NCBI GenBank assembly: GCA_016927685.1
Contig: JAFGMD010000012.1
Location: forward strand, 23,866-87,865
Direction of reading: 5' to 3'
From: Candidatus Falkowbacteria bacterium
Lineage (GTDB): Bacteria > Patescibacteriota > Patescibacteriia > CAIXNZ01
Length of the DNA: 64,000 nucleotides
Within the stretch, counting starts at the first letter, position 1. Each line of letters begins with the position of its first letter. The position numbers and the translations under genes are program-made. This document shows positions 8,620 through 62,207 of the stretch, piece by piece. The notes beneath the pieces were generated by a model. That model worked only from the letters and a program-made list of their open reading frames with translations. It ran no database searches and was not told where the DNA came from.

Positions 8620-8695
8620 GGGCGTGTAGCTCAGTCGGTTAGAGCGCTACCCTTATAAGGTAGATGTCGATGGTTCGAGTCCATCCACGCCCACC
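8620..8695 (+). tRNA. tRNA-Ile with anticodon UAU (TAT)
   Basis: Acceptor stem gggcgtg/cacgccc. Anticodon stem ctacc/ggtag with loop cTTATAa. T-arm gatggTTCGAGTccatc. No encoded CCA. Confidence 0.8.
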
Positions 8696-8816: not shown

Positions 8817-8892
8817 GGGCAATTAGCTCAGCTGGTTAGAGCGCATCGTTGACGTCGATGAGGTCAGTGGTTCGATCCCACTATTGCCCACC
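8817..8892 (+). tRNA. tRNA-Val (GAC)
   Basis: Acceptor stem gggcaat/attgccc. Anticodon stem catcg/cgatg with loop ttGACgt. T-arm cagtggTTCGATCccact. No encoded CCA. Confidence 0.88.
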
Positions 8893-16144: not shown

Positions 16145-16175
16145 TAAAAAAGTCCCGCTACGCGGGACTTTTAAT
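16145..16175. terminator. bidirectional terminator (gtcccgc tac gcgggac)
   Basis: 7-bp GC stem with flanking A and T runs. Confidence 0.7.
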
Positions 16176-16177
16176 TT

Positions 16178-16792
16178 TTAATGCTCGTAAATTAATCTGA
16201 CGGAAACTATTTCTCCATCTATTGATGGCGACCAGTCATAGGCTGTCCAAATTTTCCAATTGCCAAGTCCAATATGCGGTCCTAAGGCAAATTCGCTTAA
16301 TTCCCCTTCCTCGGCATTGCCAAAAAGCTCCATGCTGACGCCAAAATTGACATCGTCTTTTAGGGCGCGGTTGTATTCTGTCCAAAAATAAAATTGATAA
16401 GGAAAAACATCAACCGGGATATAATAGCCACCTTCTACGAAAATGTTATTCACATCTTCATTGCCCCAATAATAATCTGCCCAAACTGAAGCTGTAATAG
16501 CCATCCCGCCACCTGTTTCATTTAATGTGCCGGCTAAAAGCCAAAGTGTCAAATCATCAGATATATTGAACTGGGGTCCAAAATAAGTGAATAAGGCGTT
16601 ATAACCATCAAGCGTGCCGAAAAGATCAACTGCGCCTAAGAGCGAATTTTTCTTTTCGCCAAATTCAAGAAATTCGTGTTTCAAGGTGATATCGTATTGG
16701 CCTTCATAAGTCAGTTCATCTTCTTCGCTGGAAAAGGCCCTTGCTGGCATGAGTAAAAAAAACAGAAACAGTACTGCCAAGAGTCTTTTCAT
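16178..16792 (-). CDS. secreted aromatic/beta-rich hypothetical protein (signal peptide ...PARA|FS)
   Basis: Cleavable signal peptide and alternating aromatic pattern. Codon composition is visibly GC-richer than neighbouring genes. Confidence 0.55.
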   Translation of the reverse strand: MKRLLAVLFLFFLLMPARAFSSEEDELTYEGQYDITLKHEFLEFGEKKNSLLGAVDLFGTLDGYNALFTYFGPQFNISDDLTLWLLAGTLNETGGGMAITASVWADYYWGNEDVNNIFVEGGYYIPVDVFPYQFYFWTEYNRALKDDVNFGVSMELFGNAEEGELSEFALGPHIGLGNWKIWTAYDWSPSIDGEIVSVRLIYEH

Positions 16793-16863
16793 TTTCTTCC
16801 TCCTTTATTTATAAAATTACCAGATGCTTCATCTTAACAAATATAAAAAATTTGTCAATAGAA

Positions 16864-16898
16864 AAAGCCCGCCTGGTAAAAACCAAAGCGGGCTTTGT
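16864..16898 (-). terminator. terminator (agcccgc ... gcgggct)
   Basis: Stem-loop with T-run on the minus strand, just downstream of the 16904 stop. Confidence 0.6.
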
Positions 16899-16903
16899 TT
16901 GAG

Positions 16904-17530
16904 CTAAAGGTTAAATTTTCGATGAGCTAATATACAAGTCTTGCCATGCCAAAGTTCGTCTTCATAGGGATAAAGTTCAAGAATGCGATCGTTCTCGTAT
17001 TGGACTGAAATATTGGTCTCATGTCGGCACGAACAGACATAACGGAAATCATCACCGACAGTCAAGGCCGATTTAAGGGCATAAATCCGGATCTCTGCTC
17101 GCCTCATTATCGGATAAGTCGCATCGAACATGAGTAGCTCCGAAATTTCAGAGGCCTCAAAGCCCAAAATATCCAACTGCTCCAAAATTTTCTTGGGTAC
17201 CCTGACGGATTTGTGGAAATGAACCAAAAACAGCTCTCTGCCATAAAAGTATCCCTTTCCTTCAAGTGAAAAGTGTTCTTCGGTGATATTATCATTAACA
17301 AAGTCGTAATTCCCAGACTTAATCATTTTAGCTAGCGGTACATAGCTAAATAAATTGCTAACTTCATAGGGTCCGCTTACTTCGATACTCCTAATGAGGC
17401 ACGAAATTTTAAAGGCCAATTTCTTATCCTTGCGCAAATTCGTAAGGTGTTCGCGCGTGACGCCCAGATGTGCCAACGCTTCAAGCGTTGATACCATCTC
17501 GCTGGAAGGTAATTCTTGCAGTAGTCCCAT
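16904..17530 (-). CDS. hypothetical cytoplasmic protein (208 aa) with C/H cluster (CSCRH...HGKTCILAH)
   Basis: AGGAGG SD 8 nt upstream. GC-richer than the local genome background. Confidence 0.55.
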   Translation of the reverse strand: MGLLQELPSSEMVSTLEALAHLGVTREHLTNLRKDKKLAFKISCLIRSIEVSGPYEVSNLFSYVPLAKMIKSGNYDFVNDNITEEHFSLEGKGYFYGRELFLVHFHKSVRVPKKILEQLDILGFEASEISELLMFDATYPIMRRAEIRIYALKSALTVGDDFRYVCSCRHETNISVQYENDRILELYPYEDELWHGKTCILAHRKFNL

Positions 17531-17650
17531 TTCTGGTCCTCCTTTTTGCCCTACTTAAAGGGCGGCTGTGGCTCGCCCCGCATTATGGGCTCGCCGTTGC
17601 CCGAGTTCGTCGGGTCGCGAAATTTCCCCAATATACAAATTCGATGTTTA
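17531..17650 (-). promoter_or_regulatory. GC-rich structured 5' leader (candidate cis-regulatory RNA) with 10-codon uORF
   Basis: Minus-strand promoter TTGACA-N17-TATTAT at 17658-17686. The leader is roughly 55-60% GC by eye. Hairpin cccga-cgaac-tcggg and direct repeat GGCGAGCC x2. uORF AUG CGG GGC GAG CCA CAG CCG CCC UUU AAG UAG at 17551-17583. Confidence 0.45.
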
Positions 17651-17702
17651 ATAAATAATAATATAATATTCTATAAAATCTGTCAATGCTGACAACATAA
17701 AA

Positions 17703-17727
17703 ATCAGCCCCGCGACGCGGGGCTGAT
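17703..17727. terminator. bidirectional terminator (cagccccgcg acg cgcggggctg)
   Basis: 10-bp GC stem flanked by A and T runs, downstream of uvrA. Confidence 0.8.
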
Positions 17728-17729
17728 TT

Positions 17730-20579
17730 TTATTTCACTAATTTTTTCAAAAATTGTCCAGTATAACTTGATTTTACCTTGGTAATATCTTTTGGTGTAC
17801 CTTGTGCTACAATTTTACCGCCCTTATCCCCGCCTTCAGGCCCCATATCAATCACCCAGTCAGCGGATTTGATCACATCCAAATTATGTTCAATCACCAA
17901 AACAGTATTGCCCTTATCAACCAATTTTTGTAAAACTCCCAGCAAGCGATTAATATCATCAAAATGTAAACCAGTTGTTGGTTCATCCAAAATATATAAT
18001 GTCATGCCAGTGGCTCGGCGTGAAAGTTCAGTGGCCAATTTAACTCTTTGTGCTTCACCGCCGGAAAGTGTGGTGGCTGGCTGGCCTAATTTTAAATAGC
18101 CCAAGCCCACATCATATAAAATCATTAATTTTTCGGCAATGATTGGTATGTCGGCAAAAAATCTTTTAGCTTCATCAACTGTCATGTCTAAAACATCAGC
18201 AATATTTTTGCCTTTATAATAAATTTCCAAGGCTTCTTTATCATAGCGCTTGCCATGGCATTCTTCGCATTCCACATAAACATCTGGCAAAAATTGCATT
18301 TCAATTTTCACCAAGCCCTCGCCACCGCAAGTTTCGCATCTGCCGCCCACTACATTAAAGCTGAATTTGCCAGCATCAAAGCCGCGCATCTTAGCTTCTG
18401 GCACTTGGGTAAATAAATCGCGGATGTATGTAAACACGCCAGTATAAGTTGCAGGGTTTGAGCGCGGTGTCCTGCCAATTGGCGATTGATCAACTGTTAC
18501 AACTTTATCCAAATTACTAATACCCACAATTTCTTTATGTTCGGCGGGCTGTTCCTTGGCTCTGAAAAAATGTTTGGCCAATGAGCGAGATAAAATATCA
18601 ATAATCAAACTGGATTTGCCAGAACCAGATACACCAGAAACCGCGATAAATTTACCGAGTGGAAATTTAGCATCCAGATTTTGTAAATTATTGGCTTTCG
18701 CGCCCTTCACTGTCACAAATTTGCCATTGCCTTTTCTATAATTTTTTCTTGGCTCGATTTTATATTTACCTGATAAATATAAACCAGTTAATGACTCTTT
18801 ATTTTTCTTAATTTTATCTAAAGTGCCAATGTCCACGACTTTGCCGCCATATTCGCCTGCGCCAGGTCCCATATCAATAACCAAATCTGCCTCTTCCATA
18901 ATTGCCTGGTCATGTTCTACCACGATTACGGTATTGCCCATATCGCGCAATTTTTTCAAACTCTCAATTAAACGCGCATTATCGCGCGGATGCAAGCCAA
19001 TTGAAGGTTCGTCTAAAATATAAATTATTTCAGTCAGCGAAGAAGAAATTTGTTTAGCCAAACGGATGCGCTGAACTTCACCGCCAGCCAATGAAGTCAC
19101 GCTTCTGTCTAAAGTTAAATAGTCTAGGGAGACATGATTTAAAAATTCCAAACGCCGAATCACCTCTTTCAAAATTTGTCTGGCAATTTTGTATTCATTT
19201 TCAGTAAGACCCTTGCCATTTTTTGATTTTTTATCTATATCAATGAAAAGCTCAACAAGATTTTCCAAACTTATGTCCACAAAATCAGAAATATTTTTAT
19301 CTAAAATTGTCACAGCCAAACTTTCTGGCTTTAGGCGCTTACCTTTGCAAACCGGGCAAATAACTTCGCGCATATAATCGCCTATTTCTGTACGCACATA
19401 ATCAGAATCTGTTTCTCTGTATTTCTTTTCCAAAAAAGGAATAATACCTTCAAATATATATTTTTTGCCATCAATATCTAATTGCTCATCGCCAGTGCCA
19501 TACAAAATAACCCTTACATCATCTTTCTTCATTTTCTCTACGGCTTTATCCAGCGGAATTTTATGCGCCTTGGCAGCAGCCGCCAAGATTTTATGCATTT
19601 GCGGCTGATTTGAAGTTAAACGCGTCCAAACTTTAATGGCGCCCTCTTCGATTGTTAAGCGCGGATTAAAAATAACCAATTCAGGATCAACTTCCAAATT
19701 TACTCCCAAGCCAGTGCATTTTGGGCAAGCGCCATGTGGCGAATTAAAGGAAAAACTTCTAATATCAAGTTCGGGCAAATTTATATCGCACTTAGAGCAA
19801 TGTAAATGCTGTGAAAATAAATATTCGGCATTATTATCCTTTCTATATATTTTGATCATGCCGTTTGATAAATCTAAGGCCTTTTTAATGGCAAAATAAA
19901 TCGGCGCATGGGTAATTTTCTCTATATTAACTTTTTCCACAAAAAGATGGTCAACCAAAGCGTCTAAATTATGCTCTTTATTTTCATCAATGACTGTCTT
20001 TTCAATTTCCATCATGTTATAAAATTTACCATCCAAGCGCAGCTGTAAAAAATTGGCCTTTTTCATTTTTTTAATCAAGTGATCTAGCTTGCCTTTCTGA
20101 CCGATGACAATCGGCGCTAAGACAGCAATGCGTGTCTGCGGCGGCAATTCTAAAATCTTTTCAATAATTTGCTTAATACCCATCTTTTTTATTTCTGAAC
20201 CGCAATTTGGGCAATGTACATGCCCGATTCTGGCAAATAAAAGACGGAGATAATCATAAATCTCCGTTATGGTGCCCACGGTTGAGCGCGGGTTTGAAGA
20301 AGTTGCCTTTTGATCAATAGCAATGACCGGCGAAATACCCTCTATCTGATCAACGTCCGGCTTATCCATTAAACCAATAAATTGGCGGGCGTATGAGGAT
20401 AAACTTTCTAAATATTGTCTTTGGCCTTCGGCAAAAATAGTATCAAAAGCTAAAGATGATTTGCCAGAACCAGATAAGCCGGTTATGACCACAAATTTAT
20501 TTTTCGGGATTTCCACATTAACATCTTTCAAGTTATGAACTCTTGCTCCTTTGATAATAATTTTGTCTTGTTTAGCCAT
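17730..20579 (-). CDS. uvrA: excinuclease ABC subunit A
   Basis: 949 aa. Two ABC ATPase modules (GLSGSGKSSLAFDT, GVSGSGKSSLI), zinc-finger cysteines and LSGGEAQR signatures. Confidence 0.95.
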   Translation of the reverse strand: MAKQDKIIIKGARVHNLKDVNVEIPKNKFVVITGLSGSGKSSLAFDTIFAEGQRQYLESLSSYARQFIGLMDKPDVDQIEGISPVIAIDQKATSSNPRSTVGTITEIYDYLRLLFARIGHVHCPNCGSEIKKMGIKQIIEKILELPPQTRIAVLAPIVIGQKGKLDHLIKKMKKANFLQLRLDGKFYNMMEIEKTVIDENKEHNLDALVDHLFVEKVNIEKITHAPIYFAIKKALDLSNGMIKIYRKDNNAEYLFSQHLHCSKCDINLPELDIRSFSFNSPHGACPKCTGLGVNLEVDPELVIFNPRLTIEEGAIKVWTRLTSNQPQMHKILAAAAKAHKIPLDKAVEKMKKDDVRVILYGTGDEQLDIDGKKYIFEGIIPFLEKKYRETDSDYVRTEIGDYMREVICPVCKGKRLKPESLAVTILDKNISDFVDISLENLVELFIDIDKKSKNGKGLTENEYKIARQILKEVIRRLEFLNHVSLDYLTLDRSVTSLAGGEVQRIRLAKQISSSLTEIIYILDEPSIGLHPRDNARLIESLKKLRDMGNTVIVVEHDQAIMEEADLVIDMGPGAGEYGGKVVDIGTLDKIKKNKESLTGLYLSGKYKIEPRKNYRKGNGKFVTVKGAKANNLQNLDAKFPLGKFIAVSGVSGSGKSSLIIDILSRSLAKHFFRAKEQPAEHKEIVGISNLDKVVTVDQSPIGRTPRSNPATYTGVFTYIRDLFTQVPEAKMRGFDAGKFSFNVVGGRCETCGGEGLVKIEMQFLPDVYVECEECHGKRYDKEALEIYYKGKNIADVLDMTVDEAKRFFADIPIIAEKLMILYDVGLGYLKLGQPATTLSGGEAQRVKLATELSRRATGMTLYILDEPTTGLHFDDINRLLGVLQKLVDKGNTVLVIEHNLDVIKSADWVIDMGPEGGDKGGKIVAQGTPKDITKVKSSYTGQFLKKLVK

Positions 20580-30688: not shown

Positions 30689-31645
30689 ATGAAAAAGGTG
30701 ATTTTGGGAATTATTGTTTTCCTGACAGCACTTACGGTTTTTGCCGGGGTGCCGAACTATGCCTACAAAGATGGCCATTTCATTCCTACGCTCATTGAGA
30801 TTGACAAGACCATCGCTGGCGAGGACTTTGACCAGCTGCGTCTCAATGCGGAGAGCTTGAAAAATTGTCCTGAATGCATTGTTATTATCCAGGGAGTTGG
30901 AGAAAATCCGGGAATGAAAGCCGAAACAGTCAAGCTCTGGCTGCTCAACAACGAAAAGGTCCCTCAAAACCAGGTACGAATTTTGAAAACAGCCGGCATG
31001 CAGCCAATCAAAACCACAAACAATGGCGTGCTACTGACTATTGCCACCAAACAGGATCTGGAGGATGAAAAATTCCCAGAAAATATCTATGTAAAAAGCG
31101 AGACTGGGTATAAGCCTCTTTACGTTAAAGGCGACTGCCAACTGCTTGGCAAATTAAACGACACCCTTTACTTGATCAAACTGCTTTGTCCGGGTTTCAC
31201 CTGCGCAACTCCGGAATGTATGGAAATCGTACCCATTACGCCAACAAAACCTGACTGCAGTATTTGCAAAAACTGCCCTGAGTGCCAAAAAGGCCAAGCC
31301 GCCTACATCGAAAAATCGGACAAGGAAATCTTAAAAGATTCTTTGCTCTACTGGGGCCCGATTGGTGCCGCAGCAGGCCTAGGAGCTTCTCTCTTTTATG
31401 TGGAGGGCGCTCATGACAACAATGGCAATGGCGGAGGCAACGCTGGCATGTGCGTGAAAAAAGATGTACATGACGGCATTGAATATGACTGGGGCTGCGT
31501 TGCTCTGGTCACTGTCGGTGGTTATGCTGCTGGGGTCGGAATCGGCTATCTCGGCGAAAAAACCTATTATGTTGGCAAAGGGAATAACAAAAAAGAAGTT
31601 ACTCTTGCGCCAACAACCGGCGGTATAAAAGCAAGCTGGAAATAA
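30689..31645 (+). CDS. secreted Cys-rich protein with Gly-rich hydrophobic C-terminal tail
   Basis: Signal peptide, CPEC/CPGFTC/CSICKNCPEC clusters, and C-terminal GPIGAAAGLGASLF...GGYAAGVGIGYLG tail. Confidence 0.65.
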   Translation: MKKVILGIIVFLTALTVFAGVPNYAYKDGHFIPTLIEIDKTIAGEDFDQLRLNAESLKNCPECIVIIQGVGENPGMKAETVKLWLLNNEKVPQNQVRILKTAGMQPIKTTNNGVLLTIATKQDLEDEKFPENIYVKSETGYKPLYVKGDCQLLGKLNDTLYLIKLLCPGFTCATPECMEIVPITPTKPDCSICKNCPECQKGQAAYIEKSDKEILKDSLLYWGPIGAAAGLGASLFYVEGAHDNNGNGGGNAGMCVKKDVHDGIEYDWGCVALVTVGGYAAGVGIGYLGEKTYYVGKGNNKKEVTLAPTTGGIKASWK

Positions 31646-31748
31646 TAATCCAAACCCCGAGTCAGAAATGACTCGGGGTTTTTTCATTTATCTTAGCAAA
31701 ATAATCATTATTATATTTATAAATAGCAATACTGTTAAATAACTATCC

Positions 31749-31777
31749 TTGACAAAAACACTAACTTATGCTACAAT
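31749..31777 (+). promoter_or_regulatory. island cassette C promoter (TTGACA-N17-TGcTACAAT, extended -10)
   Basis: Shares the identical 25-mer cttatgctacaataccctattaaac with the cassette D promoter. Confidence 0.6.
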
Positions 31778-31931
31778 ACCCTATTAAACTAAATTGAATT
31801 AAGCTTTTGAAAATAGTCAAAAATCATTGACCTCTTTCAGTAGCTTAATTGGAGAAAAATCTCCATAAAAATATAGTAGGATCTTTGAAACAAGAAACAA
31901 ACCAAACATAAATTTTCCGAAGGAGGAAAAA

Positions 31932-32765
31932 ATGAAAAAAACATACGCTTCCTTTGTCGCGCTGATTTGCGCGATGTCGCTTCTGTTCGTAACCTTGATT
32001 CCGAACCAAGCTTTGGCAGCCACAAAACCGGCAGTCAATGAAGAGGCAGCGACCTCAATGATTCCCCTGAACCCGGACTGGGAAATTCAATATTTCCCGA
32101 CCGGATTCTCGACAGTCACCCGAGAGATTGAACAACAGATCCAGCCCCTGCTGGCGTGGCACAAAAGCCACCCGGAGGATATGTTCATCGTGATGGGCGC
32201 GGTGTCTGATAAACCATTCAGCAAGGATAGCGACAATAAACAGATGCAGTTGGCCACGGACCGGGCAATGGCTGTTCATAAGTATCTTACGGACAATGCA
32301 GTGCCGAAGAACAAAATCGTCATTCTGAAGTCCAATATGATTGCCATTGAAAAAGGCAACTATCGAAAAAATCAAAAGGTAATGGTATGGCATGCATATC
32401 ATCCCGAGCTATCTTCGACGCCATTGGTTACCGAAAATAAGCCATGTCCGCCTCAGCAGGAATGTCCAGTGCCAAAGTGCGACAAGTGCGATAAAGCACC
32501 GAATTACATCGTCAATGTACCGCCCCAATGCACCAAAGAGGAGTCGGATGTGATTGATCCTATCACCGGCATCCGGACCATCACAATCAACGTGACTTGC
32601 CCTGACGAGGTGCAAAAGGAAATGTGGTGCAAAGCTCATAAAGGCGCTTGCACGGCACTGATCATCGGCGGAATCGTCCTCATCGGAGGCATTTTGGCCA
32701 TTGGCTGCGCCCAGGGCGCCAGCGGACCCAATGGGTCCGGCGGTGATGCGGGTTTCTGTTTTTAA
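31932..32765 (+). CDS. secreted Cys-rich protein with C-terminal TM/Gly-rich tail
   Basis: Signal peptide, CPPQQECPVPKCDKCDK cluster, and C-terminal ALIIGGIVLIGGILAIGCAQGASGPNGSGG tail. Confidence 0.65.
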   Translation: MKKTYASFVALICAMSLLFVTLIPNQALAATKPAVNEEAATSMIPLNPDWEIQYFPTGFSTVTREIEQQIQPLLAWHKSHPEDMFIVMGAVSDKPFSKDSDNKQMQLATDRAMAVHKYLTDNAVPKNKIVILKSNMIAIEKGNYRKNQKVMVWHAYHPELSSTPLVTENKPCPPQQECPVPKCDKCDKAPNYIVNVPPQCTKEESDVIDPITGIRTITINVTCPDEVQKEMWCKAHKGACTALIIGGIVLIGGILAIGCAQGASGPNGSGGDAGFCF

Positions 32766-32868
32766 CCATCCTAAGCTACTTAACCGGGTATACATTCGTG
32801 TGTACCCGGTTTTTCTTATATAAAATATGCTGAAATTAGCATAATTTTAATAATTAAGTTAACCACTC

Positions 32869-32897
32869 TTGACAAAATCATTTTCTTATGCTACAAT
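32869..32897 (+). promoter_or_regulatory. island cassette D promoter (TTGACA-N17-TGcTACAAT)
   Basis: Same promoter/leader block as cassette C. Confidence 0.6.
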
Positions 32898-33008
32898 ACC
32901 CTATTAAACCTGTAAAAGGTTTTCAATGAAATATATAGGCAATTAGTTGTTTGCGAGATAAAGGGTCTTTTAAAACAAAATTCCAAAATTGGAAAAGGAG
33001 AAGATAAA

Positions 33009-33833
33009 ATGAAAAAGATAATGATGGCTCTTTTGGTTTCTTTGTCCGTGGTTTTCGCGGCCTGCGAAGGCGGCGACTACAATGATCACTCCTCCCATGA
33101 CTACGACCCCGATGAAATCTGCGGCAACGGCGTCTGCGGCAATGGTGAAACCCACCAGAATTGCCCGGCTGACTGCGACGCAGATTCTGAGCCGGTCTGT
33201 GGCAATGGGATCTGCGAAAATGGCGAGAATGAGAGAAACTGCTTTGAGGATTGCGGCACCACGCCCTGCACCGACGCCAATGAGAACGGCGTCTGTGATG
33301 ATGCCGAATATATCGGCATCTATTGCTACAGCAATACGGAGCTGGACGCAATCTATGGCGACACTGTCCACTATGGACAGTTTAGCTCGCCAAGCGAAAC
33401 TCCTGGAGTATGGGAGGCAGAAAACGATGTCCCTGGATTCATCGAATCTGGCGACACGATTTGCTTCACTACTCCGAGGCCATTGCCCGAGGTAGAGCAC
33501 GGCTATGAGTCACTCTACGCTGATGTGACAGCAGGGCCGTTTTCAGCCGGACAATGGATAGGTTTCAGTGTGGCACCAAAAAGCATTAACGTCCTCAGGG
33601 GCAACACCATCACATCTCGACCGATTCTGCCCTACTTCGCCGGGATGGGCTATCATGCCTGTCTTGACGAAGAGCAACCGCTATGTTGGACCAACCTATG
33701 CACGATCAGCGCAAGCGGTGTCTGGACCTGCTACGATGACGGCGTCCCCGACAGCGAATGCGGTTTGACAAAAACTTGCCAGACCTGCGTTCTGCACTGC
33801 CGGGAACTCTACAACATTTTGCTCTCCCCCTGA
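33009..33833 (+). CDS. lipoprotein with CGNGxCxNGEnxxNCPxDC repeats and a C-terminal domain paralogous to the C-terminus of the 34151 gene
   Basis: Lipobox VFAAC followed by EGGDYND, compared with AACKGGNYND in the next gene. Shared C-terminal signature YCYSN...GMGYHACLDEE versus WCYTSP...GSGYFVCLTDD. Confidence 0.7.
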   Translation: MKKIMMALLVSLSVVFAACEGGDYNDHSSHDYDPDEICGNGVCGNGETHQNCPADCDADSEPVCGNGICENGENERNCFEDCGTTPCTDANENGVCDDAEYIGIYCYSNTELDAIYGDTVHYGQFSSPSETPGVWEAENDVPGFIESGDTICFTTPRPLPEVEHGYESLYADVTAGPFSAGQWIGFSVAPKSINVLRGNTITSRPILPYFAGMGYHACLDEEQPLCWTNLCTISASGVWTCYDDGVPDSECGLTKTCQTCVLHCRELYNILLSP

Positions 33834-34150
33834 ATTTTTGCCTATCAAAGGCCCGCGTACTGAAAAAGTACCCGGGCCTTTTTCTTTTCTAGAAAAACCT
33901 AATTTATTTCATCAAATAAAACAACTTGACAAATCCTAAAAATATGCTAAGATATGCTATTCTGAAAAAGTAAAGGAAATTCAGGGATAATAGCCCTATT
34001 TTATATAGAAACAGGTGTTTTGTTGGCTCATTAAAATAAAATCAAAAAACCCTCTAAATTGAGGGTGAGGAGGAAAAAATGGAACTATGGGTTTCAAAGG
34101 AAACGTGCCATAATGGCAATAAAAAAAATGACCAAAAGGAGGTCAAAAAA

Positions 34151-37100
34151 ATGAAGAGAACAATCACGGCTTTTGTCATTTGCATGATCATGCTGACACT
34201 TGCAGCCTGCAAGGGCGGCAACTACAATGACAATTCTGGATCAGGTGGAGCCAATACTCCTCCGACAGTTGTCATTAATACGCCAAACGAGGACGAGACC
34301 TTTTTGCCGGATTCTGACATCAATATCAGGGCCCATGCAACAGACAATGGGACCGTCGCCAGAATCGTGATTCTCCAAGGCGAAACCGTCTTGTGCAGGA
34401 ATGATGCCTTTACTTTGAATTGCACCTGGGAAGATGTGCCGGCTGGGCATTATACTCTGGTTGCCATTGCCACGGATAATGAAGGCGCAACCGGATCTGA
34501 CACTGTTCGAATTTTTGTTGGCAATGCACCTCCGGGCACAAACCTTCCGCCAGAAGTGACTATTACTTCACCTGCAGACGGAACAGATTATCCGGCACCA
34601 GCGAACTTCACGGTCATGGTTTATGCCACCGACCCTGATGACCTAGTTGCTTCAGTGCAATTCTGGATTGATGACACTCCATTGGGAACAGACAATACAA
34701 CGCCATACAGCCTAGATGTAACAGATTTGCCAGCTGGCAGATATGTGCTTTGGGCAGAGGCAACTGATAGCCGAGGAGCAACGGGAATTTCACAGCTGGT
34801 TGTTATCGAAGTCGGTAATATATCGCCTCTTGATAACACTCCGCCTGTGATCACTATTGTTTCCCCAGCTAACGGAGCCAATTATCAGGCTCCAGCGAAC
34901 TTCAATGTCGGCGCAGTAGCTATTGATGCAGACGGCGACGCTATCGCTAGCGTTGATTTAATGCAAGGAACAACTACCTTGGCAACCTTAACCGCAGAAC
35001 CTTACGTTTTCTCAATCAATAACTTGCCCATTGGCACCTATGTGTTTTGGGGCAGAGCAACTGATGTCTATGGAGCGCAAGGTATTTCTGAACCGGTTAC
35101 TGTGAGCGTTACAAACACGCCGCTGGTTGCCAATAATCCGCCAAATGTTTTGGTTACTTCCCCAGCGGATGGCGCTACTTACATCGCACCAGCCAACTTC
35201 AATATCACAGCTGAAGCAGTAGACACGGATGGCGACTTAATTGCCAGCGTAACATTCTTGATTAACGGCACAGTTTTGGGAACAGACAATACTGCTCCCT
35301 ATTCTGTACCTGTCACCAACTTGCCCATAGGTAACTATGTTATCTATGCCCGGGCAATTGACGCGCGTGGAGCTGTGGGGATTTCCCAACTTATTAGTGT
35401 TCATGTCGGAACAGTCTCTCCCACAGCTAACACTCCCCCAACCGTGGTCATGGTCAGCCCAGCAGACGGCGCCACTTACACGGCACCGACCAACATACAA
35501 GTTGGTGCTATTGCTTCTGACCCAGATGGCGATGCCATTACTCATGTTGAATTGATGCAGGGGAACACTCTTCTACTCACTGACACAACTGCGCCTTACA
35601 ACATATCAATTACCAACTTGCCCGCTGGAACTTATGTTTTTTGGGCAAGAGCAATTGATTCGCGCGGAGCATCTGCTATTTCGCAGCTTGTCAGAATCAG
35701 AGTGTACAACCCCACACCAGCCATAAACAATCCACCACGCGTCATTGTGGTTTCTCCAGCTGATGGTGCCACATACACAGCACCGGCAAGCTTGAGTGTC
35801 ACGGCTTACGTGACTGACCCGGATGGTGATGCGATTGGACAAGTTGAGCTGTTACAAGGTGGAACAGTCATAGGCACGTTTAATTCAGCGCCCTATACTG
35901 TCGTTTTGAACAATCTCACGGCAGGCAACTATGTTTTTTGGGCTCGTGGGACTGATGCTCGTGGAGCAACCGGTGTATCACAGCTCGTGCAAATACGAGT
36001 TGGCAATCCTACACCAGCCATAAATATCCCGCCAAATGTCATTTTAACCTCGCCTGGCGATGGAGTCAGCTATGTAGCCCCGGCTAATTTCAATGTCGGA
36101 GCAGACGTAGTAGATTCTGATGGCGACATCATCACCCAGGTCGAGCTTATGCAGGGAAATACGGTTTTGGTCATTGACACAACGGCACCTTATACTCTGC
36201 CAATCACCAACCTGCCAGTAGGTAACTATACTTACTGGGCCAGGGCAACTGATAGCAGGGGCGGGGTCGGCGTTTCTCAATTGGTCAGAATCACTGTTGT
36301 GGCAGCACCTCCAGTCGTTAATAATCCGCCGTTAGTGATTATCACTTCTCCGGCAGACGGTGCCACTTATCTGGCACCGGCGAACTTCACTGTCACGGCA
36401 ATTGCCACGGATTCGGACAACGACGCAATTGTATCGGTTACGTTTATGAATGGGAACACGGTTTTAGGAACAGATATTTCTGCTCCTTTCTCTGTGCCCA
36501 TTGTTAACCTGCCGATTGGCAATTACGTCATTTACGCCCAAGCAACAGATGCGAGGGGCGCTGTGGGTACTTCTCAATTAATCAACATTTTCGTTGGAAA
36601 TGTATCACCCACTATCAATAACCCGCCTATTGTGGTTATTGTCTCTCCGTTTGATGGCGCTACTTATACTGCGCCGGCTGACTTTATTGTCAGTGCCTTT
36701 GTGAATGACCCGGATGGTGATGCCATTACCGGCGTTGAATTTTTGATGGGAAGCACAGTACTTGGAGTGGATAATACCGCTCCGTACGATGTTTCAGTCA
36801 CAAATTTGGCGGCTGGAAATTACGTTCTCTGGGCCAGGGCAACTGATAACCGCGGTGCGGTTGGTATGTCCCAATTGGTAACAATCCATGTTGGGAGCTT
36901 GCCACCTTCGGTTAATAATGATCCTCTGGTAATTCTGGTTTCGCCAGCTAATGGAGCCAATTATGTAGCGCCAGCTGACTTTTACGCGCAAGCGCTCGTA
37001 ATTGATCCGGATGGCGATGCCATTATCCAAGTGGAATTCTTAGTTGGTAATGATGTGGTGGCAGTTGATTCAACAGCACCATTCACAATGCCGGTCAAAC

Positions 37101-37762
37101 TCAGGTCCGCAGGTCTTTATACTGTGTGGGCCAGGGCGACTGACAGCAGAGGCGGTATTGGAATGTCCGAAATCGTCTCTGTGAATGTTACACAGCCGAT
37201 TCCCAATGCTTTGGTCTGGTGCTACACCAGTCCGCCGGCTAATACGATGGGACAGGCTGCCAGCCTTGATCCAAATTCAGGACCTGACACAGGAGCCTGG
37301 ATTCCTTATCGAGATTTGGCAGTTGATGGTTCTGGTTGCGTATCCATTGCCCAAGTTGATGGGAGAATCCCCTACATTTGGGTAGATGGCACATACGGAC
37401 CAGCAGCCGATGGACTTTGGTTTGGCGCCAGCATTCCGCCGAACGAAATCTGGGTGGATGGCGTAGCTTACACTACGATCCAATTCTTCCCATATGTCGT
37501 CGGCATTGGTTCTGGTTACTTTGTCTGCTTGACTGATGATTGCGGCTTGCAATCTGGTTATGGCCACATTCTTATCCAGCTGTTTACGGACGCTGATAAG
37601 GATGGCACGCCAAATATCAGTGATAATTGCATGATATACGCAAATGATCAGCTGGACAGCAATGGTGACGGAGTGGGAGATGCCTGCGATGGCCGCGACA
37701 GCGACAACGATGCTTATCGCGACTATGACGATGCTTATCCCAACAATCCTCTTTTACACTAG
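34151..37762 (+). CDS. giant surface lipoprotein: 11 tandem ~95-aa Ig-like (Big-type) repeats, C-terminal domain, Asp-rich Ca-binding (TSP3-like) repeats
   Basis: AGGAGG SD before MKRTITAFVICMIMLTLAAC. Repeat consensus PPxVxIxSPADGATYxAPANFxVxAxAxDxDGDxIxxVExxxGxTVLGTDxTAPYSVxVTNLxxGNYVxWARATDxRGAxGxSQLVxIxVG. C-terminus DSNGDGVGDACDGRDSDNDAYRDYDD. The ORF track's upstream in-frame ATG at 34079 is a less likely start. Confidence 0.75.
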   Translation: MKRTITAFVICMIMLTLAACKGGNYNDNSGSGGANTPPTVVINTPNEDETFLPDSDINIRAHATDNGTVARIVILQGETVLCRNDAFTLNCTWEDVPAGHYTLVAIATDNEGATGSDTVRIFVGNAPPGTNLPPEVTITSPADGTDYPAPANFTVMVYATDPDDLVASVQFWIDDTPLGTDNTTPYSLDVTDLPAGRYVLWAEATDSRGATGISQLVVIEVGNISPLDNTPPVITIVSPANGANYQAPANFNVGAVAIDADGDAIASVDLMQGTTTLATLTAEPYVFSINNLPIGTYVFWGRATDVYGAQGISEPVTVSVTNTPLVANNPPNVLVTSPADGATYIAPANFNITAEAVDTDGDLIASVTFLINGTVLGTDNTAPYSVPVTNLPIGNYVIYARAIDARGAVGISQLISVHVGTVSPTANTPPTVVMVSPADGATYTAPTNIQVGAIASDPDGDAITHVELMQGNTLLLTDTTAPYNISITNLPAGTYVFWARAIDSRGASAISQLVRIRVYNPTPAINNPPRVIVVSPADGATYTAPASLSVTAYVTDPDGDAIGQVELLQGGTVIGTFNSAPYTVVLNNLTAGNYVFWARGTDARGATGVSQLVQIRVGNPTPAINIPPNVILTSPGDGVSYVAPANFNVGADVVDSDGDIITQVELMQGNTVLVIDTTAPYTLPITNLPVGNYTYWARATDSRGGVGVSQLVRITVVAAPPVVNNPPLVIITSPADGATYLAPANFTVTAIATDSDNDAIVSVTFMNGNTVLGTDISAPFSVPIVNLPIGNYVIYAQATDARGAVGTSQLINIFVGNVSPTINNPPIVVIVSPFDGATYTAPADFIVSAFVNDPDGDAITGVEFLMGSTVLGVDNTAPYDVSVTNLAAGNYVLWARATDNRGAVGMSQLVTIHVGSLPPSVNNDPLVILVSPANGANYVAPADFYAQALVIDPDGDAIIQVEFLVGNDVVAVDSTAPFTMPVKLRSAGLYTVWARATDSRGGIGMSEIVSVNVTQPIPNALVWCYTSPPANTMGQAASLDPNSGPDTGAWIPYRDLAVDGSGCVSIAQVDGRIPYIWVDGTYGPAADGLWFGASIPPNEIWVDGVAYTTIQFFPYVVGIGSGYFVCLTDDCGLQSGYGHILIQLFTDADKDGTPNISDNCMIYANDQLDSNGDGVGDACDGRDSDNDAYRDYDDAYPNNPLLH

Positions 37763-38904: not shown

Positions 38905-39308
38905 ATCTAAATGCCAAATATGCAGATGATCGCTACTCCGTAGCTTTAGCGAAGGAGTAGAGGAAAGTCCGGACACTGAAAGCGGTAGTGGGTAACGCCC
39001 ACCGGCTTAATAGCAATATTAAGTCAGGACCAGTACCACAGAGACAATACTACCCCGCTTCGCGGGGGAAAGGTGAAAAGTGTTTTGAGGTTTTTGTTCT
39101 CGAGACAAAAGCGACAAAACTCAGCTCCTGGCAACAGGAAGCTTGTGGCAAACTCTACCTGGTGCAAGGACAAACTTATTTCTGGCAATGCTGGAAATAA
39201 TGACAAGTAGTCCGCATGAGCTTAGCAGTAATGTTAAGCCTAGATAGATGATCATCACCCGACTCAGGTCGAGGCACAAAATCCGGCTTACATATTTGGC
39301 ATTTAGAT
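38905..39308 (+). ncRNA. rnpB: RNase P RNA (bacterial type A)
   Basis: P1 pairs 38905-38921 with 39292-39308. Universally conserved GAGGAAAGTCCGGAC, GGGTAACGCC and ACAAAATCCGGCTTAC elements. Internal ORFs 38988..39200 (+) and 39024..39206 (-) are artefacts. Confidence 0.92.
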
Positions 39309-62134: not shown

Positions 62135-62207
62135 TGGACCGGACAGGACTTGAACCCGCTACCTCCTCGGTGCAAACGAGGCGCTCTACCAGGTGAGCTA
62201 CCGGCCC
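62135..62207 (-). tRNA. tRNA-Ala (UGC) with G3:U70 identity pair
   Basis: Minus strand gggccggtagctcacctggtagagcgcctcgtTTGCAccgagg...ccggtcc. 6 nt upstream of the sigma-factor ATG. No encoded CCA. Confidence 0.8.

Follow-up and report, generated by a model that had tools for sequence, protein, structure and literature searches.

We analysed a window of 64 kb (the whole stretch of 64,000 nucleotides of contig JAFGMD010000012.1 considered here) from a metagenome-assembled genome of Candidatus Falkowbacteria, a member of the Patescibacteria or candidate phyla radiation (CPR). The subject is the GC-rich leader of ORF208, an open reading frame (ORF) of 208 codons on the minus strand, together with a hairpin that spans the translation initiation region (TIR) of the same gene. 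An initial annotation, made from the letters alone, had described two minus-strand ORFs, a consensus promoter in front of the upstream one, and a leader of some 55-60% GC with a CCCGA/UCGGG hairpin, a duplicated GGCGAGCC and a short upstream ORF (uORF). Computation confirmed most of this description. The ORFs lie at 16178-16792 (204 aa; ORF204) and 16904-17530 (208 aa, with the CSCRH and HGKTCILAH motifs), the promoter TTGACA-N17-TATTAT at 17686-17658 on the minus strand with 11/12 consensus matches, the hairpin at 17600-17614 and both copies of GGCGAGCC within 17570-17595. The leader core (17545-17632) has a GC content of 60.2%, against a mean of 36.1% for the window, and in a scan of 90-nt windows values of at least 58% were otherwise found only in tRNAs and in the region from 31 to 35.5 kb. 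The uORF is present at 17583-17551, but its stop codon lies 7 nt, and not 10 nt, before the Shine-Dalgarno sequence AGGAGG. In the direction of transcription, the features of the ORF208 unit are the following.

17699-17730, minus strand: intrinsic terminator of uvrA, AAAAUCAGCCCCGCG-U-CGCGGGGCUGAUUUUU, recognised from its sequence; upstream border of the ORF208 unit, matched by hairpin-type Rfam noise
17658-17686, minus strand: ORF208 promoter of the sigma-70 type
17615-17626, minus strand: conserved box GAAAUUUCGCGA on the 5' side of the leader, aligning with UUGAAAC/UYCGCG in the homologous loci L088, L094 and L095
17600-17614, minus strand: hairpin A, CCCGA-CGAAC-UCGGG, shared with the closest homologs
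17567-17597, minus strand: hairpin B, a purine-loop hairpin in its short form, GGC-GA-GCCC-[AUAAUGCG]-GGGC-GA-GCC, from a match to covariance model R2 and the minimum free energy (MFE) fold
17551-17583, minus strand: uORF MRGEPQPPFK followed by a stop codon, judged fortuitous
17548-17563, minus strand: hairpin C, GCCCU-UUAAGU-AGGGC, clade-specific, with a pyrimidine-rich 5' strand (-7.6 kcal/mol, z = -2.0)
17520-17543, minus strand: TIR hairpin, AGGAGGACC-AGAAAU-GGGACUACU, from the fold and from 39/39 TIRs of the subfamily
16904-17530, minus strand: ORF208 (JW977_01305), 208 aa, predicted orphan of a Patescibacteria family of variable proteins of diversity-generating retroelements (DGRs), from phmmer, alignments and homolog context
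17387-17530, minus strand: N-terminal helical domain of ORF208, residues 1-48, beginning MGLLQELPSSEMVSTLEALAHLGVTREHL, from alignment, with helices at residues 3-6, 9-21, 26-34 and 36-48
16907-17080, minus strand: C-terminal segment of ORF208 equivalent to the variable repeat (VR), from alignment with the family; CSCRH and HGKTCILAH lie inside it
16862-16896, minus strand: terminator-like hairpin after ORF208, AAAGCCCGC...GCGGGCUUUUU, recognised from its sequence

The leader of ORF208 and its closest homologs

Transcription of ORF208 presumably starts near 17651. The closest homolog, protein P0005 of locus L088, shares only 41% of its residues with ORF208, and its gene has a leader with the same three-hairpin layout and with compensatory changes. 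In L088, L094 and L095, hairpin A reads CCUGA-CGGAA-UCAGG, which amounts to one compensatory change from C-G to U-A. The position of hairpin C is occupied in these three loci by a hairpin of another sequence, and there is none in locus L105. The box upstream of hairpin A varies in its place: as GAAAUYYCGCG it lies 5' of hairpin A in the clade of the window and adjoins the Shine-Dalgarno sequence in L003 and L106.

Hairpin B is located 37-67 nt upstream of the AUG of ORF208, and the duplicated GGCGAGCC is nothing other than the two strands of its helix. The helix can be extended, as GGC (17599-17601) pairs with GCC (17564-17566). Comparison with L088 shows a kept base below a different upper stem (GGCGAG-CCC-AUAAUGC-GGG-GCGAGCC in the window, GGCGAG-UUCCGC-AUC-GCGGAA-CGAGCC in L088). 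According to the MFE fold, all hairpins of the leader can coexist, with no obvious alternative switch structure. A blastn-short search of the window found no further copies of the leader, so that it does not represent a dispersed repeat or a miniature inverted-repeat transposable element.

The leader motif across the protein family

No close homolog of ORF208 was found among 5.8 billion clustered proteins, and an exhaustive phmmer search retrieved 442 distant relatives of about 200 aa each. We surveyed 80 loci of this family, found in a scan of one genome per species. Members with an N-terminus similar to that of ORF208 have a long form of the motif just 5' of the Shine-Dalgarno sequence, GGCRAGCC-UGGGG-[variable hairpin]-UGAGG-GGYGAGCC, for which RNAalifold predicted 14 pairs and compensatory changes in 11 of these. 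A covariance model of this form, R1, detects it in 25 of the 36 loci whose protein match includes the N-terminus and in 1 of the 44 loci with a C-terminal match only (Fisher p = 3.5e-11). The motif thus tracks the N-terminal domain and not the C-terminal, lectin-like part of the protein. On the model-fitted alignment, 96.9% of the cells are paired and 12 of the 14 pairs show double changes, while slid controls gave 30-57%. The long form is found near intact DGR cassettes, with the genes for the accessory protein Avd and the reverse transcriptase (RT) adjacent.

Several details of the long form may be added. Its loop strands UGGGG and UGAGG are invariant around the covarying hairpin (L008-L087, for example L013:2919-2969 and L018:2931-2981), and subgroups exchange both strands jointly, to UAAGG/UUAGG or to UAUAA/UAAAA. 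L085 has two copies about 1 kb apart (1927-1977 and 2917-2965), which may mark tandem genes of the family; the protein match of this locus is limited to the C-terminal part.

R1 recognised only the basal helix in the leader of the window (16.5 bits), the 27-position core being absent. A scan of metagenomes for the N-terminus MG(N/K/S/L)L..E.P.SE..ATLE added 50 loci of the subfamily, and since the short form proved to be widespread there, the idea that the leader of the window is a decayed motif was dropped. In the short form, three G-C pairs at the bottom of the helix are followed by a tandem G.A/A.G and a closing pair (G-C, C-G or G.A), above which the stem-loop is free in both sequence and length. 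Its base reads GGC-GA-G/C ... C/A-GA-GCC, and in related loci the hairpin precedes the AUG by roughly 20-80 nt. The compact version seen in the window also occurs in L116, L117, L120 and L122. A second covariance model, R2, was built from 19 subfamily leaders with the window excluded. It matches the window at 17567-17597 on the minus strand with 30.5 bits (E = 7.5e-6), which is the sole significant match on either strand of the 64 kb. At E < 0.05, R2 detects 27 of 46 subfamily loci, each time 5' of the AUG and in the orientation of the gene, and 439 kb of loci from other subfamilies yielded nothing below E = 0.05.

In the R2 alignment, 92.4% of the cells are paired, while slid controls gave at most 48%. 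Double changes affect 59 cells, compared with 15.3 +/- 2.9 when shuffled. Conserved nucleotides are confined to the tandem G.A and its flanking G-C pairs, whereas the part above them, upper stem and loop, is free to vary (3 to over 12 bp). GGCGAG and GAGCC are kept across proteins that are just 30-40% identical. G.U pairs are frequent and conserved, which fits an RNA on the sense strand.

The initial annotation had suspected a structured element that fits no known riboswitch consensus, and this view is supported by the conservation and covariation among homologs, including leaders of the same design such as that of L088. cmscan assigned no Rfam 15 family to the leader: at the gathering score the whole window contains only the RNase P RNA and three tRNAs and 20 related loci contain only tRNAs, while at E <= 10 the leader region and a canonical long-form leader gave only noise, in the former case all far below the gathering score. 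No description of the element was found in the literature searched.

A further hairpin at the translation start

The TIR hairpin of the subfamily with the N-terminus MG(N/L)L, which is new, is also predicted for the window. There, the Shine-Dalgarno sequence (17538-17543) would pair with codons 2-4 across a tandem A.G/G.A, in the pattern ||o||oo||, and the loop contains the AU of the start codon (17528-17530). The predicted stability is -7.2 kcal/mol (z = -3.7), and none of 200 shuffled sequences was as stable.

MAFFT could not set this region in register, and pairs were therefore counted by an AUG-anchored script on 39 distinct TIRs of the subfamily. One helix of nine positions is found in all 39 (mean z = -2.8 against shuffles of the 5' untranslated region, 5'UTR). 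CCU, ACU or (A)CCU in codons 3-4 is the partner of AGG, which forms the 3' half of the Shine-Dalgarno sequence and to which a further base is often added; 2-4 purine-purine mismatches follow, and then CC(C) pairs with the GG(G) of AUG-GGN. The loop of 3-7 nt holds the AU of the start codon. In three loci a G:C pair is replaced by A:U through the synonymous Asn codons AAC and AAU. The first mismatch alternates between A.G and G.A (11 versus 7 distinct stems) and is never G.G, an exchange made through the synonymous Gly codons GGG and GGA. These two codons encode Gly at position 2 in 39/39 genes but only 28% of the Gly elsewhere in the same genes. The compensatory changes fall on synonymous sites, which is evidence for a constraint on the RNA. 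When the partners of the 5' and 3' strands were shuffled, no shuffle attained the observed pairing. Secondary matches of R2 straddle the AUG in eight loci, which indicates that the leader hairpin and the TIR hairpin are of one type.

ORF208 and its family of DGR variable proteins

Searches of Pfam and NCBIfam with ORF204, ORF208 and the ORF208 family found nothing above threshold, and the relatives of ORF208 likewise have no Pfam domain. The identity of the family became apparent from its gene context. In L004 and L006 the family gene lies directly upstream of genes for bAvd and an RVT_1 reverse transcriptase, and in about 40 of the 80 surveyed loci Avd (minus strand) and RT (plus strand) are encoded about 1 kb downstream. 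Furthermore, the final 125-151 nt of homologous genes, the VR, recur between the gene and avd as a template repeat (TR). The mismatches between VR and TR fall almost exclusively on adenines of the TR (24/25 in L018 and 22/23 in L066), and such adenine-specific pairs were found in nine of ten homolog loci tested, the tenth having a gapped alignment that was left unscored. Adenine-specific mismatches next to Avd and RT are the signature of DGRs, and the family therefore comprises DGR variable proteins of the CPR type. As ORF208 aligns over its full length with proteins that bear a VR and a cognate TR beside Avd and RT, it is by homology predicted to be such a variable protein.

A tblastn search of the window with two RTs and two Avds as queries detected neither gene, and the final 220 nt of ORF208 are not repeated anywhere in the 64 kb, as they would be if its TR were present. 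ORF208 is therefore an orphan or a remote target. DGRs are known to have remote targets, so that the missing RT and Avd are compatible with activity.

The VR-equivalent tail of ORF208 is divergent and AT-rich, and it ends in ...ILAHRK where the family consensus reads ...RFLAVRK. The CSCRH...HGKTCILAH cluster falls into this segment, which aligns with the hypervariable VR; this undercuts the interpretation of the cluster as a metal site, which is not supported. The cluster is more likely to be a product of diversification, as judged from the alignment. An AlphaFold2 model of ORF208 (predicted local distance difference test score of 87) shows a helical N-terminal domain (residues 1-48) followed by an alpha/beta domain, whose closest fold matches are C-type lectin-like domains, although these matches are weak and below significance. 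A sequence-profile search of the PDB returned only designed helical repeats, which are not meaningful.

Variable proteins of CPR DGRs are abundant and lack recognisable domains and membrane anchors (DGR clade 2, Roux et al. 2021, PMC8144416). ORF208 resembles them in having no transmembrane segment or known domain, and differs from them in its divergent, AT-rich tail and in lacking RT, Avd and TR within 64 kb.

In loci L093-L142, the N-terminal helical module, the leader and the TIR hairpin are joined to at least three types of C-terminal variable domain, which end in ..RFLAVRK, ..SARKF or ..A(L/V)RAS, and Avd or RT is nearby in just two of these loci. This suggests that the N-terminal helical module and the hairpins form a shuffled 5' module, mostly on remote DGR targets.

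Possible roles of the RNA element

Both hairpins are conserved and covarying, and both belong to the coding strand. In 36 of the 50 related leaders, a promoter-like site precedes the leader motif by no more than 170 nt. On balance, we favour the view that the leader is a conserved, two-part cis-acting RNA element that probably exerts translational control over DGR variable-protein genes with the N-terminal helical domain. We are highly confident of the conserved structure and moderately confident of translational control, while our confidence in a specific trans-acting binder is low. The TIR hairpin would lower the access of ribosomes to the Shine-Dalgarno sequence and the AUG, and translation would thereby be held down or gated. 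More tentatively, one trans-acting factor might recognise both purine-loop hairpins and so tune the repression. As conservation is limited to the G.A loops and their flanking pairs, recognition by a macromolecule seems likelier than a metabolite pocket. Candidates for the factor are the conserved N-terminal domain of the protein itself, to which the motif is tied, and a DGR accessory protein. A version of this idea in which the hairpins bind a dedicated factor (the N-terminal helical domain or an Avd-like accessory protein), giving feedback on the dose of the hypervariable protein, is in our estimation rather unlikely. If true, this would be a new class of RNA regulatory element peculiar to DGR targets, and no expression control of such proteins would have been known in CPR bacteria before it. 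The element is intact in the orphan gene of the window and thus belongs to the gene module and not to the retroelement cassette.

Several observations count against translational control by a two-part element and against a binding factor. The entire case is built from sequence comparison and predicted folds, and the pair counts come from alignments that are model-fitted and contain sequences related by descent, both of which inflate pair statistics. The TIR hairpin of the window is only moderately stable (-7.2 kcal/mol), and it may tune translation without switching it; moreover, R2 does not detect it. The inner stem of this hairpin has 2 bp. The upper part of hairpin B in the window is short (4 bp and an 8-nt loop), which could reflect relaxed selection in an orphan gene. 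The trans-acting factor is at present a hypothetical one. Fold and family searches gave no support to the protein's own N-terminus as the binder: the N-terminal domain has no fold match, and the only match to HTH_17 is below threshold (E = 0.15).

A serious rival is a passive structure that merely sets expression, in which the hairpins stabilise the 5' end of the mRNA and fix a low translation rate without any sensing. This would agree with the very small conserved core, with hairpins that coexist in the MFE fold without an obvious switch structure, with the modest stability of the TIR hairpin, and with the fact that Patescibacteria have few regulators. Nevertheless, mere stability requires neither an invariant tandem G.A nor the swap from A.G to G.A in the TIR, it has no need of the same loop architecture in two places, and it does not explain why GGCGAG and GAGCC are conserved across proteins of 30-40% identity. 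We therefore regard a passive leader as possible, though the less probable explanation. A riboswitch or ion sensor, with purine-rich internal loops that bind a small molecule or metal ion and so alter access to the Shine-Dalgarno sequence, could be envisaged from the position of a conserved, structured 5'UTR right before that sequence, from the invariant strands UGGGG and UGAGG of the long form and from the absence of a match to any known class. However, the loop sequences differ among subgroups (UAAGG/UUAGG, UAUAA/UAAAA), the short form has no such loop and too few conserved positions to form a pocket, and the regulated gene encodes a hypervariable binding protein rather than an enzyme or a transporter, which might have hinted at a ligand. 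A sensor is thus improbable, and with so few conserved nucleotides and a freely varying upper stem and loop, the classical riboswitch contemplated in the initial annotation is not sustained. The attenuator proposed as an alternative is ruled out as the main explanation: no U-tract follows any leader hairpin, the hairpins being followed by ACAGCC or AAAAAGG, and the only terminators found by scanning lie at 17699-17730, at about 16862-16896 and at 16148-16172. Least probable of all, to the point of being negligible, is control by ribosome stalling on the Pro-rich uORF. The uORF does exist and contains a PPF motif, but it has no Shine-Dalgarno sequence, its AUG forms part of the loop at the tip of hairpin B, which is stable and conserved, and its Pro codons merely reflect the GC-rich 3' strand of that hairpin. 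Nor is it conserved, as the four closest leaders (L088, L094, L095 and L105) have neither an AUG nor an ORF at the equivalent place; their loops read AUC, GCA, AUAGCUUUAGCGA and GGAGCUUUAGCGA.

Two further explanations are highly improbable. One is an operator at the level of DNA, where a regulator would bind the direct repeat GGCGAGCC...GGCGAGCC downstream of the promoter. The two 8-mers are indeed direct repeats just past the promoter and a trmB-like regulator gene is close by, but the repeats are anywhere between 6 and over 40 nt apart, the sequence between them covaries as a helix, G.U pairs are frequent and strand-specific, and every match is on the coding strand. The variable spacing, the helix covariation and the strand-specific G.U pairs rule out an operator as the main explanation. 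The other is a part in the DGR mechanism itself, where the leader hairpin would be the mark by which the RT-Avd complex recognises its target, be it transcript or gene. The restriction of the motif to a family of DGR targets and the occurrence of the long form in loci with adjacent Avd and RT would be in line with such a part. The leader hairpin is, however, more than 450 nt away from the VR, whereas known homing signals of DGRs (the initiation of mutagenic homing site, IMH, and the downstream hairpin, as in Bordetella phage BPP-1) sit at the 3' end of the VR. In addition, the occurrence of the motif is linked to the N-terminal domain rather than to the domain with the VR, and it persists in orphan genes with no cassette nearby. 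Lastly, the initial annotation had viewed the locus as a compositional islet of two GC-shifted genes, possibly of foreign origin. Both genes do exceed their immediate neighbours in GC content (ORF208 42.3% and ORF204 40.7%, against 32.8% for the trmB-like gene and 38.1% for uvrA), ORF208 has no close relative, and the homologs of ORF204 have differing neighbours from contig to contig. Yet the two genes are no outliers: they rank 8th and 9th among the 46 ORFs of the window (gene mean 36.5%, standard deviation 5.4), with z-values of 1.07 and 0.77, respectively. A shift of about one standard deviation does not bear out a foreign origin. Furthermore, the two genes are independent transcription units, and neither mobility genes nor repeats are found at their flanks. 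Horizontal gain of a two-gene islet is accordingly an unlikely explanation, even if it has somewhat more in its favour than a sensor. What stands of the initial annotation as a whole is the conserved, structured leader outside known classes; the uORF peptide, attenuation and the islet do not stand, and the TIR hairpin and the DGR family had been missed.

Comparison of the proposed two-part element with known systems shows in which respects it is new. The RNA motifs RT-1 to RT-19 (for example RT-10 of Bordetella phage BPP-1) occupy the stretch between TR and RT, next to the RT gene, and a role in priming has been proposed for them (Weinberg et al. 2017, PMC5737381). The present element resembles these motifs as a structured RNA of DGR loci recognised by comparative analysis, and differs from them in its location, which is the target gene's 5'UTR and TIR, and in matching no Rfam model. 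With autoregulatory leaders, such as that of rpsF bound by S6:S18 and the kink-turn sites of L30e and L7Ae, it shares small hairpins with a purine-rich loop or tandem G.A near the Shine-Dalgarno sequence, conservation limited to the loop and flanking pairs, and the tie to one gene family. Unlike in those leaders, the binder is hypothetical, there is no 3-nt bulge, and RNA binding is not known for the encoded protein. A kink-turn was rejected, since the loops are symmetric (2x2 or 3x3) and no three-nucleotide bulge is present. In ROSE and fourU RNA thermometers, too, non-canonical pairs weaken the hairpin that encloses the Shine-Dalgarno sequence and the start codon, but the present element lacks a ROSE or fourU consensus, matches nothing in Rfam, possesses an extra upstream hairpin of the same type, and belongs to groundwater hosts that would seem to face no obvious temperature cue. 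It has the defining features of neither the autoregulatory leaders nor the thermometers that sequester the Shine-Dalgarno sequence. A pseudoknot between the P2 loop of the long form (AUUGG) and a downstream CCAAU was dropped on inspection by eye, because it overlaps P1 and is not general.

CPR DGR variable proteins are known as a kind; what is new is the uncatalogued leader and TIR element with its second hairpin. Being tied to the N-terminal module, this element offers a first handle on the expression control of these proteins. It spans the 5'UTR and the first four codons, and is thus a short and directly testable sequence. It also explains why the codons for the N-terminal MG(N/L)L are so constrained, synonymous positions included, and why there is a conspicuous patch of about 60% GC in a genome of 36% GC. 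In metagenomes, R1 and R2 can flag members of the family and their true start codons.

ORF204 and other features of the window

Downstream of ORF208 lies ORF204, with these features:

16831-16858, minus strand: ORF204 promoter, TTGACA-N16-TAAGAT with an extended TG, from a promoter scan
16178-16792, minus strand: ORF204 (JW977_01300), 204 aa, secreted and aromatic-rich, with an N-terminus resembling a signal peptide
16148-16172, both strands: bidirectional terminator between ORF204 and the convergent trmB-like gene, from a terminator scan

Since each of the two genes has its own promoter and its own terminator, they constitute two transcription units and not one operon sharing a leader. ORF204 is therefore a separate unit outside the RNA element. 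A stretch of 47 nt that comprises its promoter and first transcribed bases (16814-16860) is identical in the homologous locus L002 (76-122), although the proteins are only 67% identical, and the 5'UTR in L002 contains an additional GC hairpin, GCCCUCCUUCGCAUAAAGCUACGGAGGGC.

The proper compositional outlier of the window is the region 30689-37762, in which four plus-strand ORFs have GC contents of 46.6-53.9% against a gene mean of 36.5%. Two of these ORFs have no Pfam match, one (31932-32765) is OmpA-like, and one encodes a protein of 1227 aa with 10 Big_7 Ig repeats. Beyond the cluster at 31-35 kb, the GC-rich patches of the window are the leader, the RNase P RNA (class A, 182.8 bits, 38914-39303) and the three tRNAs (8620-8693, 8817-8890 and, on the minus strand, 62135-62207).

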